From a virus: DNA of 10,989 nt. The position numbers were made by a program, and so were the translations under genes. Below, piece after piece: positions 1 to 10,989 of this stretch. The stretch lies in the UHGV virus genome UHGV-1791444; one strand, written 5' to 3'. The notes under the pieces are model-generated. The model did no database searches. It was not told where the DNA came from and was given only the letters and a program-made list of their open reading frames with translations. The number at the start of each line of letters is the position of its first letter. Position 1 is the stretch's first letter.

Positions 1-1320
1 GACCCAACCATTGGTCTTGCCCAGATTCAGAAACTCAAGGAGCAGAACAACCTGCTTCAACCCGGTGAAGAACTAACGCCTCAGCGTCAGATGCTTATTA
101 ATGCCGAAGCCAGCTTACTGGAAGCGGTCAAGCGTAAGTCCGCTGAACAGGCTAAGGAGAACACTAAGTTAATCCAGACCCAGAACAAGCAACTGGTCAT
201 AGACCAAGTATATCAGCGGCGGCTGGCTGGTGACAACGTGTCCACCAACTATGAGGACCTTCCGGTCTCAGATGCTACAGGCGAGTTCAAGCGTTCTGAC
301 ATGAACAACTATGCGTCTGCCAAGCTACAGCAGATTGACCAGATGGACATCCCTGAGGCCGCTAAAGACGCTCAGAAGGTGGCATTGTTAAGAGCTGACA
401 CTAACAACGGTCCGTTCCGTAATGCCTTCCAGACGCTTACTCAGGACGCTGCTGGTGAGTGGCAAGCTGCGGTCATCCGTGGACAGTACGACCCAGACAA
501 GATGAAACGCTTCGAGTCACTGCGTCGTGCCTACACTCAGGACCCTTCAAGTTTCGCTGCTCTGTATCCTGACCAAGCTCAGTTGTTCTCTACGTTCGAC
601 CAGATGGACAAGATGGGTCTGGACCCTCAGACGATGATTGAAGCTGATAAGCAAGCTGCAAGTCAAAGCCGTGAGATGCGCATGGAGTCAGACAAGGCGT
701 GGCAGGAGTTGAAGAACGACTCTCGGAATAAGGACCTTTCGCGTCTTCCTACGTCTCTGGACTCAAGTGCTCGTAAGGTCTGGGACTCATGGTACTATCG
801 TACAGGTAACGCTGACGCTGCAACTCAGCAGACTCAACGATGGCTGAATGAAAATACCGTAACGTTCCAGTCTGAAGGCTCTGACGGTAAGTCCATCGGC
901 ATGGTGTCCAAGCACCAGCTTATGGTCGGGGATAACCCTGAGTCGTGGCAGGTAGGTCGAGACATTATCGACACCGCCCGTAAGCAGCTCATTAAGGCCA
1001 ACCCTTGGGTAGTGAACTCTCAGTTGTCCGTTGTTGAACAGAACGGCTCTATCTTCCTCCAAGACGCTACAGGGACTATTCGTATTCGCTACGATAAAGA
1101 ACTTGTAGGTAAACTCTACCGCGAACAACAGCAGAAGGCACAGGATGCCGCATACGCTCAGGCAGAACGTGACGCTAACAAGCGAGCGCGTATCGTCGGG
1201 ACTAAAGCTGCTGGTGACAAACGTCGAGCTGACCGAGAGGCCAACATCGAGAAGCGCGGAGGGATGTACAATGACGTCTCATTGGAGGGTATCGCAAACG
1301 TACTAATCGGTAAGGAGTAA
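1..1320 (+). CDS. Internal virion (core/ejectosome) protein C, gp15-like; 5'-truncated by the window edge
   Basis: Frame 1 is open from base 1 with no stop until TAA at 1318-1320, so the CDS begins upstream of the window. It sits immediately before a gp16-like gene, as in T7. The charged, Gln-rich, probably alpha-helical composition fits T7 gp15. Identification is by synteny and recalled similarity, not a search. Confidence 0.8.
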   Translation, partial: DPTIGLAQIQKLKEQNNLLQPGEELTPQRQMLINAEASLLEAVKRKSAEQAKENTKLIQTQNKQLVIDQVYQRRLAGDNVSTNYEDLPVSDATGEFKRSDMNNYASAKLQQIDQMDIPEAAKDAQKVALLRADTNNGPFRNAFQTLTQDAAGEWQAAVIRGQYDPDKMKRFESLRRAYTQDPSSFAALYPDQAQLFSTFDQMDKMGLDPQTMIEADKQAASQSREMRMESDKAWQELKNDSRNKDLSRLPTSLDSSARKVWDSWYYRTGNADAATQQTQRWLNENTVTFQSEGSDGKSIGMVSKHQLMVGDNPESWQVGRDIIDTARKQLIKANPWVVNSQLSVVEQNGSIFLQDATGTIRIRYDKELVGKLYREQQQKAQDAAYAQAERDANKRARIVGTKAAGDKRRADREANIEKRGGMYNDVSLEGIANVLIGKE

Positions 1321-1324
1321 CATA

Positions 1325-4300
1325 ATGGTGACTCGTGGTATTCGCAATAACAATCCGGGTAACATCCGGGTAAGTAAGGACCAATGGGAAGGAATGACTG
1401 GAGATGATGGCGCATTCGTCACCTTCGATAGTCCAGAGTCTGGCGTCCGAGCTTTAGGTAAAAACCTGCTGTCCTACGGTCGCCGAGGTTATGACTCCAT
1501 CGAGAAGATTATCAACCGATGGGCACCTCCTAACGAGAACGACACTAAGGCTTATATTGACTCAGTGGTGGCTGCAACTGGTATTCCAGCTACCCAGAGT
1601 CTCGACCTATCGGACCCTGACACCCTGTCTTCTCTGGCTCAAGCTATCAGCTTCCATGAGACAGGATCCCGGTACGACCCTGAAGTCTATCAGAAGGGAG
1701 TCGCACGAGCACTCAATGGCATTAGCCCAAAGACTCCACCAGTAAGCGCTAACGTATTTGACGCACTCACGGAAGGACTCAAGGCTAAACCTAAAGCAGC
1801 TCTGGGTGAGAACCTTCCGACCGCTGCTGGTCTGAATATTGAGGGTCAAGCACCTGAAGCTCCAAACGAATCGTTCGGTGAGATGTTCTATAAATCTACT
1901 GGCGAGACCATGCAGGAGCGAGAAGACCGCTCTACGTGGTTTGGTTTTGGTGCTGCTACAGAAGCTGAAGTGAAGAACTCTATGGTCGGCGTGGCTATCC
2001 GCGCTGGTCAGACTGAGGACTCACTGGATGTCATTGGCGATGTGTTCAACCCGACGCGATGGAACAACCATAAGTGGTCTCGTGAGGAGCTGGACCAGAT
2101 TCGTAACGCTGGAGTTCTTCCTCAGTATTACGGGGTCATTACTGGTGGCTCACCTCAGAACCTGACCGAGCTTATTAACTTGGCGCTTGAGAACCAGAAG
2201 TTGGACCAAGAGAAGGCCAAGGCAGGGATTGGTGCTCAGTTAGCTGCTGGTGTGATTGGTGCTGGTGTAGACCCGCTGACCTACGTTCCTATAGCTGGAC
2301 AGGTTGGTAAAGGTGGTAAGCTAGTAAACAAGATGTTCACCGTGGCTGCTCAATCTGGAGCACTGGCTGGTGTGTCCGAGATGGCCCGTACCTCAGTGGC
2401 TGGCGGTGATGCTCATGTGGCTGAGGCTATCCTTGGCGGTGCTCTCTTCGGTGGAGGTATGACTGCTATCGCTGATGGTTTAGGCAGAGCCTTAGGTCGT
2501 AACACTAACGAGTTCGCTGGTCCAGCCACACGTCTGGAAGCTCGTGAGACAGCTCGTAACGTTGATGGTCAGGACCTGTCTCGTCTACCTATTCAAGAAG
2601 GTGAGGAGACCTTTAGTCATCACGGCGTTAAGTTCGCTGACGTTCCGAATGAGCCGGGTAGTGTACGACTTGAAGATGGTTCAATACTGATTGGTGAGAA
2701 CCCTCTGAACCCTAAGACACGTAAGGTCTTTGACGAAGTGATTGAGCCTGAACGTGCAGCTGCTGGTGTGAACCTTGGTGGACTAACTGAGATTGGCCTG
2801 AAGCTGCTTCGGTCTGAGAACCCTGAGATTCGTGGAGTCGCTGCCGACTTAGTGCGTTCACCAACTGGTATGCAGTCAGGGGCCTCAGGTAAAATCGGGA
2901 CCACTGCGTCAGACGTATTCGAGAGACTTCGTGCTGTGGACCATCGGTTCTACAACGACATCGACGACGCGGTTACTGAGGCGCTCAAGGACCCATACTT
3001 CCAGACAGCATTCTGGAGAGACTCTGGCGCATTCCGTCAGGACATCTACCAGCGTGTGTCTATGGCTATTGAAGACGGAAGTGTGAACCTGAAGGCTGAA
3101 CTGACTCCGGGAGAACTGAAAGTCTATGACCTGCTGAAGAACCAGTTTGACGCCAAGCGTGAGATGATGGAGAACCCGGCGATGTTTGGTCGTCCAGACG
3201 CTCAGTCTATCTTTCCGGGTAGCCGATTCAAGGGAACCTACGTACCACATGTATATAGCAACCAGATGAAGGAGCTGTACATCAAGGAACTTGGAAGTCC
3301 AGAGGCACTACAGGAGGCCATCAAGAAGTCATGGTTGACCAGCTATGCGTCTCGACCTGAGGTCAAGAAACGTGTGGACGAGGCACTCTTAGAGGCTGAC
3401 CCTACGTTGACTCCAGAAGGACTTGCGGCTGCGGTAGATAAGTACGCCAACGATAAGGCTTATGGTATCTCTCACACCGAGCAGTTCGAGCGTTCATCCG
3501 TAATGGAAGAGAACATCAATGGTCTGGTTGGTCTGGAGAACAACAGCTTCCTTGAGGCTCGTAACCTGTTCGACAGCGATATGTCAATAGTTCTTCCTAA
3601 TGGTCAAACCTTCAGTGTCAACAACCTGCGTGAGTGGGACATGGACAAGATTGTCCCGGCATACAACCGTCGAGTTAATGGTGACATTGCTATTATGGCT
3701 GGTACAGGCAAGACAACGAAAGAAATGAAGGACTTGGTTGAGACCATGATGAACAAGGCTGGTGATGACGGAAAGTTGAAAGGTGAAGTATCTACCTTGC
3801 GTGACACACTTAAGATTCTAACTGGTCGTGCTCGACGTGATGGTGCTGACGATGCAGCCTTCGCTACCGTGATGCGCACAATGACAGACCTATCGTTCTT
3901 CGCTAAGAATGCCTATATGGGTGTTCAGAACTTAACGGAGATTGGTGGTATGCTGGCCCGTGGTAACGTTCGTGCAATGCTGCATGGAGTCCCAATTTTC
4001 CGTGACCTAGCCTTCCGTAACAAGAAGGTTGGGGCCTCAGAGATTAAGGACCTGCACAATGTTATCTTTGGTAAGGAACTTGATGACTCAATACGCCCAT
4101 CTAAACAGGATGTCATTGACCGTCTGCGGTCTTACAGTGACCTCGGTCGTGGTACAGCTACAGCTCTGGGGACTGCCAAGTATTACACTGGTGAACTTGC
4201 AGTACGCTCTCCGTTCACTAAAGTTCTCAACGGTACGACCAACTACCTGTTAGATGCTGGACGTCAAGGCTTCCTGTCTGACATCGTGGAGCATAGCCTG

Positions 4301-5212
4301 ACTGGTAGTAAGCGTAAGTTCGATGACCGCTGGCTGAAGACCGCTGGTATATCTGACGAGCAGTGGAAGGGCATTAAGTCATTAATCCGTGAGTCAGTGA
4401 CTCGTGGTCCAGACGGGAAGTACACAATCAAGGATAAGAAGGCGTTCAGTCAGGACCCAAGGGCTATGGACCTGTGGCGTATGGGTGACACCATCGCTGA
4501 CGAAACGTTACTCCGTCCCCACAAGCTGTCAAACATGGACGCCAAGGCTTATGGTCCTCTCGCTAAGACTGTCCTTCAGTTTAAGAACTTCGTCGTCAAG
4601 TCCATCAATGGACGTACCATGCGAACCTTCTATAACGCCACGAAGAACAACCGAGCGATGGATGCTGCTCTATCTACCGTGATGTCTATGGGTCTGGCTG
4701 GTATCTACTACATGGCTCAGGCTCACGTCAAGGCTTACGCTATGCAGGATGGCAGAGACCGTGAATACCTCAAGCAAGCTCTTGACCCGACGATGATTGG
4801 TTATGCGGCTCTGTCCCGTAGTTCACATCTGGGTGGCCCACTTGGGGTAGCTAACATTCTGGGTGGCATCGCTGGGTATGAGGACACTAAGATGCTCCGT
4901 TCGTCTATCCTACCTCGTTCGCCTACAGAGAAGCCTGAACGTGCCATCGCGTATGGTGCGGCTACAAGTGACCCTGTTATGAATGTTGTTGGTAACTTCT
5001 TGGAGCAGGTTCCAGCTTTCGGATATGCTGCTAACGTTGGCGCTTCGGCTTACAACTTGGCTGGCTACCTCAAGGCTGATACTCGCGTCAACGAGCGTGA
5101 CTACATGACCGGGATGTATAATACGTTCCGTGAACTGGTTCCGAACGACCCAATTACCCAGAAGCTGTTGCTTGGAACGTTTGAGGAGCAAGGCATCCAC
5201 ATCAAGGACTAA
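1325..5212 (+). CDS. Internal virion protein D, gp16-like (1295 aa), with a divergent N-terminal domain
   Basis: ATG at 1325 lies 8 nt after an AAGGAG Shine-Dalgarno (1311-1316). Long stretches match T7 gp16 as I recall it: GAGVDPLTYVP, MRLEARETARN, RSPTGMQSGASGK, GTYVPHVY, SRPEVK, AYGISH, GLVGLENNSFLEARNLFDSD, RRVNGDIAIM, NGTTNYLLDA, DPRAMDLWR, ALSRSS, ELVPNDP. The first ~130 aa (MVTRGIRNNNPGNIR...) do not resemble the T7 N-terminus. Confidence 0.9.
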   Translation: MVTRGIRNNNPGNIRVSKDQWEGMTGDDGAFVTFDSPESGVRALGKNLLSYGRRGYDSIEKIINRWAPPNENDTKAYIDSVVAATGIPATQSLDLSDPDTLSSLAQAISFHETGSRYDPEVYQKGVARALNGISPKTPPVSANVFDALTEGLKAKPKAALGENLPTAAGLNIEGQAPEAPNESFGEMFYKSTGETMQEREDRSTWFGFGAATEAEVKNSMVGVAIRAGQTEDSLDVIGDVFNPTRWNNHKWSREELDQIRNAGVLPQYYGVITGGSPQNLTELINLALENQKLDQEKAKAGIGAQLAAGVIGAGVDPLTYVPIAGQVGKGGKLVNKMFTVAAQSGALAGVSEMARTSVAGGDAHVAEAILGGALFGGGMTAIADGLGRALGRNTNEFAGPATRLEARETARNVDGQDLSRLPIQEGEETFSHHGVKFADVPNEPGSVRLEDGSILIGENPLNPKTRKVFDEVIEPERAAAGVNLGGLTEIGLKLLRSENPEIRGVAADLVRSPTGMQSGASGKIGTTASDVFERLRAVDHRFYNDIDDAVTEALKDPYFQTAFWRDSGAFRQDIYQRVSMAIEDGSVNLKAELTPGELKVYDLLKNQFDAKREMMENPAMFGRPDAQSIFPGSRFKGTYVPHVYSNQMKELYIKELGSPEALQEAIKKSWLTSYASRPEVKKRVDEALLEADPTLTPEGLAAAVDKYANDKAYGISHTEQFERSSVMEENINGLVGLENNSFLEARNLFDSDMSIVLPNGQTFSVNNLREWDMDKIVPAYNRRVNGDIAIMAGTGKTTKEMKDLVETMMNKAGDDGKLKGEVSTLRDTLKILTGRARRDGADDAAFATVMRTMTDLSFFAKNAYMGVQNLTEIGGMLARGNVRAMLHGVPIFRDLAFRNKKVGASEIKDLHNVIFGKELDDSIRPSKQDVIDRLRSYSDLGRGTATALGTAKYYTGELAVRSPFTKVLNGTTNYLLDAGRQGFLSDIVEHSLTGSKRKFDDRWLKTAGISDEQWKGIKSLIRESVTRGPDGKYTIKDKKAFSQDPRAMDLWRMGDTIADETLLRPHKLSNMDAKAYGPLAKTVLQFKNFVVKSINGRTMRTFYNATKNNRAMDAALSTVMSMGLAGIYYMAQAHVKAYAMQDGRDREYLKQALDPTMIGYAALSRSSHLGGPLGVANILGGIAGYEDTKMLRSSILPRSPTEKPERAIAYGAATSDPVMNVVGNFLEQVPAFGYAANVGASAYNLAGYLKADTRVNERDYMTGMYNTFRELVPNDPITQKLLLGTFEEQGIHIKD

Positions 5213-5230
5213 ACTATCACTATAGGAAAC
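5208..5230 (+). promoter_or_regulatory. Phage single-subunit RNA polymerase promoter, phi17-equivalent (ACTAAACTATCACTATAGGAAAC; predicted +1 G at 5225)
   Basis: Contains the CACTATAGG core shared by T7/T3/K11-type promoters (T7 consensus TAATACGACTCACTATAGGGAGA). It overlaps the gp16 stop codon and lies 52 nt upstream of the gp17 ATG, the position of phi17 in T7. It matches the second site at 10181-10203 at 20 of 23 positions. Confidence 0.7.
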
Positions 5231-5276
5231 GGGAGGCGCTACCATAGGTCTCCGTTTAAATCACAAAGGAGGCATA

Positions 5277-7277
5277 ATGTCCACGATTACACAATTCCCT
5301 TCAGGAAACACTCGGTACAGGATTGAGTTCGACTACCTAGCCAGAACGTTTGTTGTTGTTACGCTGGTGAATAGCTCTAACCCTGCCCTGAACCGTGTAC
5401 TGGAAGTTGGTCGAGATTACCGATTCCTTAATCCAACGATGATTGAGATGTTGGTTGACCAATCAGGTTTCGACATCGTTCGTATTCACCGTCAGACTGG
5501 AACTGACTTAGTGGTAGACTTCAGGAATGGCTCAGTGTTGACAGCTAGTGACCTGACCAATTCAGAACTTCAGGCTATCCATATTGCAGAAGAAGGGCGA
5601 GACCAAACTGTTGACTTAGCGAAGGAATATGCCGATGCTGCTGGTATCTCTGCTGGCAACGCTAAGGATAGCGAGGACGAAGCACGACGAATAGTTTCGA
5701 GTATCAGGGAAGCTGGTCTAATTGGCTATATTACCCGTAGCTCCTTCGAGAAAGGCTTCAACGTTACACTATGGAACGAGGTCCTGCTAAGGGAAGAGGA
5801 TGGTTATTATTACCGCTGGGATGGTGCTCTCCCAAAAACAGTGCCTGCAGGTTCAACCCCTGATTCCAATTGGACTAACGTAGGTAAGCTGAATGGGCTT
5901 GATGAGCACTCACCTGAGAACTTTGGGGCAATCCCGAACGACCCCAGCTTTGACTGTCTACCTGCTATAAAATTGGCCATAGCTACAGGCACATTAAACC
6001 TTGATGGCAAGTCTACCTACCACGTAACAGATGAGGTTGTTATTCCCTCTTACCTACGTGGGAATCTAAATGGGGCAACAATTAAAGCAATTGGTCCTAC
6101 ATGGCCTGCCTTAAAATCTGTTGTTCGTGTTAGTAAATTTCCTATTGGAACCCCAACCGTTGATGTAGCTAATACTGAGAACCAGGTACGAGGTCTACGT
6201 TTGATTGGTAGTCTGAACATAGACTGTGCAGATATTGCATCTTATGGTTTTTACGCACGACTAATGTGTGCAGAATCCGAGATGGGTAGTATCTATGCAT
6301 ATAATGCTAATAGATATGGCATTGTAATGTTTGCTTGCTGGTATTTTCAAATGGGCACTCTCCATGCAAACAACTGTGCAAGGGGCATGGCATTAGGTTA
6401 TTCAACGGAAGGTGAGCAAGGGGATACATATGTAAATGCTACACACTTCCCTCACATTAGTGCATGGGGTACAGATAAGTCTATGGGACTAGGTTATGAC
6501 CCAATCACAGATGATGCGAGTAAATATACGATAGGTGCTGGTATTATCTTAGGTCGTGGTTTATCTACTAGTGTTGGTGTGATTTGCTCTGAGAATACGT
6601 CTGGTGCTGGGGTGGTAACAATGGACCCTGCTGCGTGGGACATTGGGGTCATGTACTGTGAGGGCAATAGTAAAGACTTTACTCAAGAGGGTGAGCCGAA
6701 GGTATCATTATTGTCATCTAAGGCTAACAGCGAGAGTCATACACTTACCATCTCTACACTTCACCTATCTGCTGGTTGTGGCATCTTAACCAGAAGTAGA
6801 CAAGAGCGCGTGTTAATCAGAAGTCTATATCGTTTTGATAATTCAAGAACCTTCCACTCTTATTGCACAGCAGACACAGTAGAGGTTGGTAGCAGCAACT
6901 ACTATGTACTTAACGGGCATAATTACAACGCACCTGCTGCACTTATTAAGGAACCCCTTAATGTAGATTTTGTGCGTTCAGGGCTGACTTTGAGTGAGTG
7001 GACATCTACCGTTATTGGTCATTTCGCCGGTAGTACAGCAGAACAGCAGCTTTATGTTAAGTTACCAGCAAGTCCTAGTGGCCTGGAACTACAGATAGCT
7101 AGTGAGGATGGAACAGAATATATCACTGTAACTGGTACAGATTTTAAAGCATCTCTGACTAAGCAAAGATTGCCTAGTAAACTGTATGAGATAAAGATTG
7201 GTGGGGTATCTACAGTACCAGTTGCCGATTGCTCTATTTTAGTCAGAAGTAGAAAAGGAGACTGGTACTACTGGTAA
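5277..7277 (+). CDS. Tail fiber/tailspike gp17: T7-like N-terminal tail-attachment domain fused to a putative right-handed beta-helix polysaccharide depolymerase domain
   Basis: AAGGAGG Shine-Dalgarno at 5266-5272, ATG at 5277. The first ~150 aa align with the recalled T7 gp17 N-terminus ([42 protein letters not shown] versus T7 FEYLARKFVVVTL, DYRF, LVDFTDGSILRAYDL, MHVAEEARD). The remainder has no T7 fiber similarity; it begins with an [25 protein letters not shown] motif typical of pectate-lyase-like beta-helix tailspikes and is rich in G/N/S/T. Confidence 0.85.
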
Positions 7278-7319
7278 CAACTTTGGGTCACGGACGACCC
7301 GCTTTAAACTGGAGGTTTT

Positions 7320-7514
7320 ATGATTGAGTTAGACTTCAAGAATGAGGTCCTTAAAGCCTCTCCTATCGTCGGGACCGCTGCGGCTGATGGTGCCAGTCGG
7401 TTCTTCTTCGGACTTACACTGAACGAATGGTTCTACGTTGCAGCTATCGCGTACACCGTTGTCCAGATTGGTGTGCTAGTCTACAAAACGATTAAAGGAG
7501 GTGGTAAAACATGA
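7320..7514 (+). CDS. Type II holin, gp17.5-like (64 aa)
   Basis: GGAGG at 7310-7314, ATG at 7320. The protein matches recalled T7 gp17.5 (SPIVGTAAADGASRFFFGLTLNEWFYVAAIAYTVVQIG versus T7 APIVGTGVADVSARLFFGLSLNEWFYVAAIAYTVVQIG). It has one hydrophobic helix and a short charged C-terminus. Its stop overlaps the next start (ATGA at 7511-7514). Confidence 0.85.
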   Translation: MIELDFKNEVLKASPIVGTAAADGASRFFFGLTLNEWFYVAAIAYTVVQIGVLVYKTIKGGGKT

Positions 7515-7774
7515 CGCAGATGGACTTAGAGAAGTTCCTCTTGATGCTTGATACTGAACGTGCTCGACTCATGCTGCAAGACTTGCGGGATGACACTAAG
7601 CGTTCACCTCAGCTCTACAACGCCATTGAGAAGCTGCTTGCTCGTCACAACTTTGTGTTAAGCAAGGTGTCTGTGGACGAGAAGACGCTGGCTGATATGG
7701 AGGCCCTGAACGCAGAGTACGATAAGGTGCTTTCAGCGACTGAGGATAATGACACAGGGTATGGTGTTCAATAA
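7511..7774 (+). CDS. Terminase small subunit (DNA maturase A), gp18-like (87 aa)
   Basis: AAGGAGGTG Shine-Dalgarno at 7495-7503, ATG at 7511. The FLLMLDTERARLMLQDL...RSPQLYNAI motif matches recalled T7 gp18 (FLEMLDTAMAQRMLADL...RSPQLYNAI). Position between the holin and Rz is as in T7. Confidence 0.85.
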   Translation: MTQMDLEKFLLMLDTERARLMLQDLRDDTKRSPQLYNAIEKLLARHNFVLSKVSVDEKTLADMEALNAEYDKVLSATEDNDTGYGVQ

Positions 7775-7785
7775 GTGTTAGACTC

Positions 7786-7846
7786 AAGGTCATTACTATA
7801 TGTAGTGGCCTTTATGGTTAACACTAACTAGTGGAGGCGACTCCAC
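7786..7846 (+). promoter_or_regulatory. Candidate RNase III processing hairpins in the gp18/gp18.5 intergenic region (R18.5 analogue)
   Basis: In the transcript, 7786-7796 (AAGGUCAUUAC) can pair with 7802-7812 (GUAGUGGCCUU) across a UAUAU loop, giving 11 bp with two G-U pairs. A second small hairpin GTGGAG-GCGA-CTCCAC lies at 7831-7846. T7 has an RNase III site between genes 18 and 18.5. Structure was inspected by eye only. Confidence 0.3.
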
Positions 7847-7876
7847 GTGAAAATCTGATAAACCTGGAGGGCAACT

Positions 7877-8326
7877 ATGCTCGAATTTTTAAAGAGAGCG
7901 GCTCCGTGGTTACTTGCAGCAGTGATGTTTGCTGGTGGCTACCACACCGCTAACAATAAGTGGGAGGCTAAGGTCAATGCAGAATACACCTCGAATCTTA
8001 AGGCATCGGAAGATACAAGGCTTGCTGTACAAGCTGAAGTCGACAAAGTGTCCAAACGGTTTCAGGACGAAATGTCCTCTCTGGAAGGCAGCACTGATAG
8101 GATTATTGCTGACCTTCAGTCTGACAATAAGCGGCTGCGCATCCGAGTCAAACCTACGAGTGGAGCCACGCAAAGTGACGGTCGATGCGTCATTGATGGT
8201 TACGCCGAACTTGACGAACGAGATGCTAAACGTCTTATCGCCATCGGAGTGAAAGGAGACAAGTGGATTAAGGCCCTTCAGGACACGGTGAGAGCCTTAC
8301 AGCAAGATAAGGAGGTGACGAATTGA
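7877..8326 (+). CDS. Rz-like i-spanin, gp18.5-like (149 aa)
   Basis: GGAGG at 7866-7870, ATG at 7877. It has an N-terminal membrane anchor ([13 protein letters not shown]) and matches recalled T7 gp18.5 motifs ([49 protein letters not shown]). Confidence 0.85.
7977..8252 (+). CDS. Rz1-like o-spanin lipoprotein, gp18.7-like, embedded in the +1 frame of Rz
   Basis: Lies entirely inside the gp18.5 gene in a different frame. The signal peptide and lipobox ([19 protein letters not shown]) are followed by ASES...SLMV.PNLT.EMLNV, close to recalled T7 gp18.7 ([23 protein letters not shown]...SLMVEPNLTTEMLNV). Start is set at the ATG at 7977; the frame is also open from a TTG at 7929. Confidence 0.7.
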   Translation: MQNTPRILRHRKIQGLLYKLKSTKCPNGFRTKCPLWKAALIGLLLTFSLTISGCASESNLRVEPRKVTVDASLMVTPNLTNEMLNVLSPSE

Positions 8327-10086
8327 GTAAAGACTTAGTGGCGCGTCAGGAGCTAATGACTGCCCGTATGAAGGCAGACTTCGTGTTCTTCATCTTCGTT
8401 CTCTGGAAAGCTCTTAGCCTTCCGGTTCCAACACGCTGCCAGATAGATATGTGTAAGAAGCTAGCTGCTGGGGATAATCGCCGCTTCATTCTTCAGGCGT
8501 TCCGTGGTATTGGCAAGTCGTTTCTGACCTGTGGTTTCGTGGTCTGGAAGTTATGGAACAACCCAGACTTGAAGTTCATGATTGTGTCAGCCTCAAAGGA
8601 ACGAGCCGATGCGAACTCCATCTTCATCAAGCGAATCATCGACCTCATGCCTCAGCTTCAGGAACTCAAACCTAAGCAGGGACAGCGAGATGCGGTTATC
8701 AGCTTCGACGTTGGGCCAGCCAAGCCAGACCACTCACCTTCGGTTAAGTCCGTTGGTATCACTGGTCAGTTGACTGGTAGTCGTGCTGACATCCTGATTG
8801 CCGATGACGTGGAGGTTCCGAACAACTCAGCTACTCAGGCTGCACGAGACCGACTGTCAGAGCTTGTGAAAGAGTTCGACGCTATCCTGAAGCCGGGAGG
8901 TACAATCATCTATCTGGGTACTCCTCAGAACGAGATGACCCTGTATCGTGAGCTGGAAGGCCGTGGATACACCACTACTATCTGGCCCGCTCGTTATCCA
9001 CGCGACAGGAAGGACTGGCAGTCTTACGGCGACCGTCTGGCACCGATGCTTCAGGCAGAGATGGAAGAGGACCCTGAGTCCTTCTACTGGCGTCCGACTG
9101 ATGAAGTACGCTTCGATGATACGGACCTGAAGGAGCGTGAGCTGTCATACGGTAAAGCTGGCTTCGCTCTACAGTTCATGCTTAACCCTAACCTGAGTGA
9201 TGCCGAGAAGTACCCCCTGAAGCTCCGTGACCTTATCGTAGCAGACTTGGACCCAGCGTCTAGCCCAATGGTCTACCAATGGTTGCCAAACCCTCAGAAC
9301 AAGCGTGAGGACGTTCCTAACGTTGGACTCATGGGTGACTCGTACCACACGTATCAGACTGTAGGTTCTGCGTTCAGCTCATACACCCAGAAGATTCTGG
9401 TCATTGACCCTAGTGGTCGTGGTAAGGATGAAACTGGTTATGCGGTACTGTATCAGCTCAACGGCTACATCTTCGCTATGGAAGTGGGTGGTATGCGTGG
9501 CGGTTATGAAGACTCTACGTTGGAAGCCTTGGCTAAGATTGGTCGTAAGTGGAAGGTCAACGAATACGTCATTGAGGGTAACTTCGGTGATGGTATGTAC
9601 CTTGAGCTATTCAAGCCTGTAGCGGCCCGTATCCATCCTGCGGCTGTAACTGAAGTGAAGAGTAAGGGTCAGAAAGAACTCCGCATCTGTGACGTTCTGG
9701 AGCCTATCATGGGGTCTCACCGACTTATCGTTAACGCTGCTGCTATCGTCCAAGACTACCAGACAGCCTCTGATAAGGATGGCGTTCGTACCCCTATCTA
9801 CTCTCTCTTCTACCAGATGACCCGTATCTCTCGTGAACGTGGAGCCTTGGCACACGATGACCGACTTGATGCGCTGGCTATCGGTGTACAGTTCTTCGTT
9901 GAGTCTATGGCTAAGGATGCCAACAAAGGCGAACGTGAAGTCACTGAGGAGTGGCTGGAGGAACAGATGGAGAACCCACGGAAAGGCTTTGAGTCCATCC
10001 ACACCGAGTTCTGGGACAATGGGGTCCGGGTAACTCACAATACGGACGACGAGCTAGGACTAGGGTCATACGTTACGTTTCACTAG
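8323..10086 (+). CDS. Terminase large subunit (DNA maturase B), gp19-like (587 aa), apparent TTG start
   Basis: Similarity to recalled T7 gp19 runs the full length ([136 protein letters not shown]). The reading frame opens right after a TAA at 8308-8310, and the first start-type codon is TTG at 8323, 7 nt after AAGGAGG (8309-8315). That TTG overlaps the Rz stop. Confidence 0.92.
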
Positions 10087-10180
10087 CTGAATGAATAACT
10101 ATGGGTGAAAGCTGCATGAATACGCAGTTAGTAACCTATAGTTACTACCAGTCTAACCTACTGTTTTACAAGGAGTTTGG

Positions 10181-10203
10181 ACTTAACTATCACTATAGGG
10201 AAG
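10181..10203 (+). promoter_or_regulatory. Phage single-subunit RNA polymerase promoter, phiOR-equivalent (ACTTAACTATCACTATAGGGAAG; predicted +1 G at 10198)
   Basis: Same core as the site at 5208-5230; the shared motif is GGACTWAACTATCACTATAGGRAA. It sits about 110 nt after the gp19 stop and upstream of the small gp19.5-like ORF, matching the position of phiOR in T7. Confidence 0.7.
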
Positions 10204-10383
10204 ACCCCCGGTTACTTATAGTATTACTGTAGTGAATATACATATGCAGACTTTATGCAAGACCTTAGGAGGCAGACTCCGAGTTCTTACCTAAGGCTTG
10301 CACCGATGGAAGGAGGGTGATATTAATCATAATCCCTCCAATACAGATAGTCACCGACCATAGATACAGGAGGTATGTAGCAT

Positions 10384-10779: not shown

Positions 10780-10989
10780 TCTCACAGTTCAAGAACCTCA
10801 AGTCTCCCCATAGGCCCTCTTTAAGTCCAGACCAAAGGCCCTACCCCAGTCTATCATAAGGTTGGACCGGCTGTAAATACCTCAAGTCAACGATAGGTCA
10901 TGACTATCGGTGGTGGTGGAGACGATAGGTAGGGACTATTGGTCTGCCTCTGAGTCTCTATCTGTATAACCATAAGTCACAACCATAAG
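10780..10989. repeat. Putative right direct terminal repeat of the phage genome, running to the window end
   Basis: From 10780 the sequence TCTCACAGTTCAAGAACCTCAAGTCTCCCCATAGGCCC... parallels the T7 genome terminus as I recall it (TCTCACAGTGTACGGACCTAAAGTTCCCCCATAGGGGG...). The 238-bp distance from the gp19.5-like ORF matches the T7 layout. The region is non-coding with internal short repeats (ACCTCAAGTC at 10795 and 10879; ACGATAGGT at 10890 and 10923). The exact boundary cannot be set without the left genome end. Confidence 0.5.

Follow-up and report, generated by a model that had tools for sequence, protein, structure and literature searches.

The two copies of a 24-nt motif in the DNA analyzed here, a 10,989-nucleotide stretch of the UHGV virus genome UHGV-1791444 (hereafter, the window), are almost certainly the Kayfunavirus equivalents of the φ17 and φOR promoters, read by the T7-family single-subunit RNA polymerase (RNAP) that the phage itself encodes. 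The promoter class is already known: it is that of K1F and other Kayfunavirus phages, identified by computation and put to use from 2012 on, with biochemical mapping following in 2025. No observation spoke against this assignment. The evidence seen here comprises sequence identity, copy number, strand, synteny, and strict co-occurrence with a K1F-type specificity hairpin in related phages. Initiation at the +1 G, the extent of the minimal promoter, and discrimination against other phage RNAPs, including orthogonality to T7, are taken from the literature.

Motif Copies in the Window

The motif GGACTWAACTATCACTATAGGRAA is found in the window as two exact copies, both on the plus strand, at 5206-5229 (GGACTAAACTATCACTATAGGAAA) and 10179-10202 (GGACTTAACTATCACTATAGGGAA), and no third copy appears in the window at up to three mismatches. 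In 200 dinucleotide-preserving shuffles of the window the mean number of matches was 0.00. An earlier note, made from the letters of this DNA, had reported a 24-nt motif shared by these two sites, and the observation holds with zero mismatches at both of them and none expected. The starts given there for the two copies are also correct, and only the ends (5230 and 10203) have to be moved, being one base too far for a 24-mer, a trivial difference.

With +1 placed at the first G after TATA (5225 in copy 1 and 10198 in copy 2), the segment from -7 to +2 is CACTATAGG and the segment from -12 to -8 is ACTAT in both copies. The former is the T7-type core, as the earlier note had recognized, and is shared with the T7 class III promoters φ17 and φOR (TAATACGACTCACTATAGGGAGA), along with the overall -17 to +6 architecture. 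The latter sets the motif apart from the three promoter classes with which it had been contrasted. In T7, positions -12 to -8 are CGACT (14 of the 17 annotated promoters), and positions -17 to -13 differ as well, being TAATA in T7 and ACTWA in the window. The T3 and K11 classes are T7-family promoters with a similar -7 to +2 core, whereas their -12 to -8 segments are ACCCT (T3-type) and GGGCA (the K11-like KpnP promoter). T7-family promoters are conserved elements of approximately 23 bp (-17 to +6) that have the core (C)ACTATAGG and start transcription at a G. When aligned with the 17 annotated T7 promoters, both copies show this sequence architecture, and both agree exactly with the K1F subclass, that is, ACTAT at -12 to -8 together with the consensus CTWAACTATCACTATAGG.

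A search with the 14-mer core at up to three mismatches yielded only one additional match, on the minus strand at 10338-10351 with three mismatches. It was rejected as a promoter candidate because the number of such matches lies within chance expectation. Scans for sigma-70 promoters and intrinsic terminators gave counts no higher than chance and were not relied on.

The φ17- and φOR-Equivalent Promoters

The φ17-equivalent promoter occupies 5208-5230 on the plus strand (-17 to +6; ACTAAACTATCACTATA followed by GGAAAC) and was assigned by exact motif match and identity to K1F φ17. It overlaps the TAA stop codon of gene 16 (5210-5212), the last codons of this gene forming the upstream half of the promoter, and its +1 (5225) lies 52 nt 5' of the gene 17 ATG (5277). 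From -22 to +10, every base of copy 1 equals that of φ17 in the K1F genome (DQ111067; +1 at 32614), located upstream of K1F gene 17. According to the T7 annotation, T7 φ17 likewise lies in the gap between genes 16 and 17.

A possible stem-loop is located at the start of the φ17 transcript (approximately 5227-5257; AAACGGGAGG...TCTCCGTTT), and a strong Shine-Dalgarno sequence, AAGGAGG, is located 3' of it. We do not claim this hairpin as a feature, its folding energy being no better than that of shuffled sequences (z = -1.03). RNAalifold applied to 13 distinct Kayfunavirus φ17 leaders retained only six pairs, with weak covariation.

The φOR-equivalent promoter occupies 10181-10203 on the plus strand (-17 to +6; ACTTAACTATCACTATA followed by GGGAAG) and was assigned by exact motif match and identity to φOR of phages TM1 and EFA-1, with which copy 2 agrees at every base from -22 to +10. 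Its +1 (10198) is 112 nt past the gene 19 stop codon and 582 nt before the terminal repeat. In 119 GenBank phage records, the 111-nt region surrounding this copy is conserved at 99% identity or more. At positions +1 to +6 K1F φOR differs from it, with GGAAGA in K1F versus GGGAAG in the window.

Comparison with the T7 annotation demonstrates that both copies are syntenic with T7 promoters, one lying in the gene 16/17 gap as φ17 and the other, like φOR, past gene 19 and ahead of the right terminal repeat. In T7, φ13, φ17, and φOR follow one another without any phage promoter in the intervals. The window begins late in gene 15 and extends to the right end, so that on the T7 pattern it is expected to hold exactly these two. 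No further phage promoter, that is, no other copy of the motif, is found among the late genes 17.5-19 (7320-10086).

Genomic Context

The window corresponds to the right end of the genome of a K1F-like podovirus, beginning in the last part of gene 15, continuing through genes 16, 17, 17.5, 18, 18.5, and 19, and reaching the terminal repeat. In a megablast comparison with GenBank phages, 117 records cover 80% or more of the window. The best matches are Escherichia phage TM1 and 'Enterococcus' phage EFA-1, with 95.6-95.7% identity over 100% of the window; K1F itself is 94.6% identical, and many other K1F-like phages are among the matches. The matching phages belong, as do TM1, EFA-1, and K1F, to the genus Kayfunavirus (Studiervirinae). 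A 61-nt stretch of the φ17 leader, searched for as an exact match in IMG/VR, gave no hits. The closest contig found is IMGVR_UViG_3300045988_000061 from IMG/VR, which is 98.4% identical over positions 1-8155 of the window. The record of EFA-1 (MT350292.1, 'Enterococcus phage EFA-1') is flagged UNVERIFIED_ORG; the phage is a typical coliphage-like Kayfunavirus, 95.7% identical to the window, which makes its Enterococcus faecalis host label doubtful.

The C-terminus of gene 15, an internal virion protein, extends to position 1320. It is followed by gene 16 (1325-5212, plus strand), encoding internal virion protein D, the ejectosome transglycosylase, of 1295 aa, as identified from the list of open reading frames and the homologous annotation in K1F, TM1, and EFA-1. 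At the junction of these two genes (1320-1325), an HNH homing endonuclease gene of approximately 450 nt is present in TM1 and EFA-1 and absent from both the window and K1F, so that a mobile endonuclease is polymorphic for presence/absence at this site.

Gene 17 (5277-7277, plus strand) encodes a tail fibre or spike protein of 666 aa with the Pfam domains Phage_T7_tail at the N-terminus (1.3e-15) and Tail_spike_N (5.3e-12). The gene is mosaic. Only its first approximately 590 nt, corresponding to the N-terminal adaptor (Phage_T7_tail), are common to most Kayfunavirus genomes, and the remainder, including the Tail_spike_N domain of the TSP1/Gp66 type (residues 154-197), occurs in TM1, EFA-1, and EFA-2 alone. 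The same three phages are the only ones with full-length DNA homologues of the gene. Its distal part takes the place of the K1F endosialidase, which points to a swap of the receptor-binding module and to a different host capsule or O-antigen. The remaining genes, all on the plus strand, encode a holin (gene 17.5, 7320-7514; Pfam Phage_holin_2_2), the small terminase (gene 18, 7511-7774; DNA_Packaging_2), an Rz-like spanin (gene 18.5, 7877-8326; Phage_lysis), and the large terminase (gene 19, 8323-10086; Terminase-T7_RNaseH-like).

The phage resembles K1F in the core AACTATCACTATAGG, which is identical in the window copies, in ACTAT at -12 to -8, and in the genomic positions of the promoters. 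It is nevertheless a different isolate, about 95% identical, in which the receptor-binding part of gene 17 is distinct from the K1F endosialidase.

The terminal-repeat sequence was located at 10780-10958 on the plus strand by its alignment to nucleotides 1-178 of K1F, the K1F direct terminal repeat. It begins with TCTCACAGTT, like the left ends of T7 and K1F. The last 31 nt of the window run on into left-end unique sequence. The window therefore crosses a concatemer junction, so that either the source assembly is permuted or the direct terminal repeat has been collapsed. Directly after the repeat, 762 nt 3' of the φOR +1, the plus strand carries ATCTGTA (10960-10966), in a location that matches ATCTGTT at T7 nucleotide 161 and ATCTGTA at K1F nucleotide 180. 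The T7 sequence ATCTGTT is a class II pause and termination signal, the concatemer-junction signal, and is linked to concatemer processing. We take ATCTGTA of the window to be its counterpart, presumably with the same function.

The Probable Cognate RNA Polymerase

Gene 1 lies outside the window, and the RNAP of this phage was considered through relatives at 95-98% identity. The polymerases of K1F and EFA-1 were compared with that of T7; TM1 was left out, its gene 1 being split by the permuted start of the record. In both K1F and EFA-1, gene 1 encodes an 893-aa polymerase with 64% identity to T7 RNAP. The catalytic residues D537, K631, Y639, and D812 are kept, and the AT-rich recognition loop is unlike that of T7. 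In the segment of the specificity hairpin corresponding to T7 Q744-I761, the K1F and EFA-1 proteins differ from T7 at only three positions, Q754S, R756N, and I761V, with R746, N748, and Q758 retained. Hence the relatives encode a T7-family RNAP with altered hairpin residues, in line with the proposal of the earlier note that the phage has its own polymerase with a preference unlike that of T7.

The hairpin changes can be compared with the changes in the promoter. In the T7 RNAP-promoter crystal structure of Cheetham, Jeruzalmi and Steitz, dated 1999, R756 reportedly contacts the G of the -9 base pair. The R756N substitution fits the change at this position, from C:G in T7 to A:T here. At the same time, N748 is the same in T7 and K1F although positions -11 and -10 differ (GA vs CT), and therefore the code relating residues to bases is not one-to-one.

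The inspection of the specificity loop that the earlier note had suggested, carried out on relatives, gave a uniform result. The K1F-type loop TRLNL[M/L]FLGSFNLQPT[V/I] is present in all 24 motif-bearing loci that cover this part of gene 1, including that of the contig closest to the window. That nearest relative (98.4% identical) has the canonical K1F loop, and the S754/N756/V761 loop of K1F matches that of the window's close relatives. Very likely, gene 1 of this phage also carries a K1F-type hairpin, given that the relatives at 95-98% identity all do.

Two alternatives concern this polymerase. According to the first, the promoters are of the K1F type and the RNAP of this particular phage has drifted to a sub-variant, for instance with an M750L or V761I loop. 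Such variants do exist among the motif-bearing contigs (TRLNLLFLGSFNLQPTV in seven loci and ...QPTI in one), and gene 1 is outside the window. However, the genomes with variant loops still bear CTWAACTATCACTATAGG promoters, having been retrieved by that motif, the 98.4%-identical relative has the canonical loop, and the promoters of the window are the canonical ones, so we consider a drifted polymerase very improbable. The second, that gene 1 encodes an RNAP with a non-K1F loop that nevertheless uses canonical K1F promoters, is to our mind just as poor a prospect. If true, it would represent an alternative protein solution to reading ACTAT.

Promoter Copies in Related Phages and the Known K1F Class

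Further copies of the promoter were sought in relatives of the phage. In K1F, TM1, and EFA-1 alike, AACTATCACTATAGG has 11 matches at up to two mismatches, all on the coding (plus) strand and at sites syntenic with T7 promoters. In K1F, whose promoters were read directly from the genome sequence, the copies precede genes 1, 1.15/1.2, 1.6, 2.5, 4, 6.5, 9, 10, 13, and 17, and the last one follows gene 19. Thus, the expectation that the motif would recur elsewhere in the genome and precede late genes was borne out in the three relatives. T7-family promoters characteristically recur within a genome, always on the coding strand, in gaps between genes or at gene 3' ends, and upstream of middle and late genes. 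This is the arrangement observed, with two copies in the window and 11 in each relative.

A scan of IMG/VR for CTWAACTATCACTATAGG retrieved 95 stretches, most of them from 39-40-kb contigs that bear several copies on one strand. The 18-mer consensus was also present in three contigs of sizes uncharacteristic of Kayfunavirus, 2698536640_000010 (72.9 kb), 2872164251_000007 (29.3 kb), and 2770939623_000001 (29.1 kb). Chimeric or incomplete assemblies could account for them, as could other phages with the same promoter.

Promoters of this class have been described repeatedly. Consensus promoters for each RNAP hairpin subfamily were derived with PHIRE by Temme et al. (2012; PMC3458549), who placed the K1F hairpin (Q744-I761) in T7 RNAP and the K1F consensus in positions -12 to -7 of the T7 promoter; the resulting T7(K1F)/PK1F pair was active and orthogonal to the T7, T3, and N4-type pairs. 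A T7(K1F) variant with 754S/756N/761V and the backbone mutation 632S is listed with the cognate promoter ACTAT in Table 2 of a 2025 paper in NAR, where the orthogonality of the variant set that includes T7(K1F) is graded as modest. Native K1F RNAP together with PK1F has served both as an orthogonal broad-host expression system, in Halomonas and E. coli, and as a mutator, likewise orthogonal, that increased the mutation frequency approximately 46,000-fold on its cognate promoter, against 6- to 27-fold on non-cognate promoters (PMC12218169). In biochemical work on Escherichia phage Ro45lw, also a member of Kayfunavirus, the purified RNAP was shown by 5'-end deep sequencing to start at +1 = G, and the minimal promoter was defined as the 21-nt sequence ACTTAACTATCACTATAGGGA (Takatsuki et al., J Biol Chem 2025; PMC12272871). 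Finally, the 2026 genome paper on the Kayfunavirus phage Sparklingdew reports eight repeats with the consensus CTWAACTATCACTATAGG, read there as promoters.

Positions 10181-10201 of the window are identical, base for base, to the Ro45lw minimal promoter ACTTAACTATCACTATAGGGA. Ro45lw is a different isolate, and copy 1 of the window departs from its sequence at -14, where T is replaced with A, and at +1 to +3, which read GGA instead of GGG.

These data bear on whether the motifs represent a new promoter specificity class and hence a novel orthogonal polymerase/promoter pair. ACTAT is indeed unlike the T7, T3, and K11 sequences at -12 to -8. However, novelty is refuted by the identity of the motifs to the published K1F and Ro45lw promoters and by the publication of CTWAACTATCACTATAGG as a Kayfunavirus consensus, while as many as 119 GenBank phage records have a φOR region with 99% or higher identity; we therefore give the new-class interpretation practically no credence. 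What the earlier note had foreseen, a transcription pair orthogonal to that of T7, already exists in published form, both as T7(K1F) (2012) and as native K1F RNAP. Nor is there any real prospect that the copies are a chance resemblance to the T7 core or a repeat with a role other than that of a promoter, such as signalling recombination or packaging: although only two copies lie in the window and none is annotated as a regulatory feature in the records of K1F, TM1, and EFA-1, zero matches are expected by chance, the relatives have 11 same-strand copies syntenic with experimentally defined T7 promoters, and a purified Kayfunavirus RNAP (Ro45lw) starts at the +1 G of an identical 21-mer (PMC12272871).

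Proposed Function and Implications

For φ17- and φOR-equivalent promoters read by the phage's own RNAP, the following scheme can be proposed. The CACTATAGG core at -7 to +2 would support melting and initiation at the +1 G, the latter point coming from the literature. ACTAT at -12 to -8 would be read by a specificity hairpin with S754, N756, and V761 in place of Q, R, and I, the gene 1 RNAP of this phage being predicted to have the loop TRLNLMFLGSFNLQPTV. The change in the hairpin would result in a preference distinct from those of T7 (CGACT), T3 (ACCCT), and K11 (GGGCA). From its +1 at 5225, the first promoter would transcribe the late genes for the tail spike, holin, terminase, and spanin, starting with gene 17. 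By analogy with T7 φOR, the copy with +1 at 10198 probably sends transcription over the right end and the terminal repeat to ATCTGTA, and it may have a role in replication or packaging.

In summary, the result is mostly one of annotation: two sites can be labelled as φ17 and φOR of a K1F-like phage. The idea of an RNAP/promoter pair orthogonal to T7 was sound, and it had been realized in 2012 with the T7(K1F) chimera and extended with the native K1F and Ro45lw RNAPs. The case also provides a positive control, in which reading of the sequence alone recognized a real and functionally distinct promoter class.
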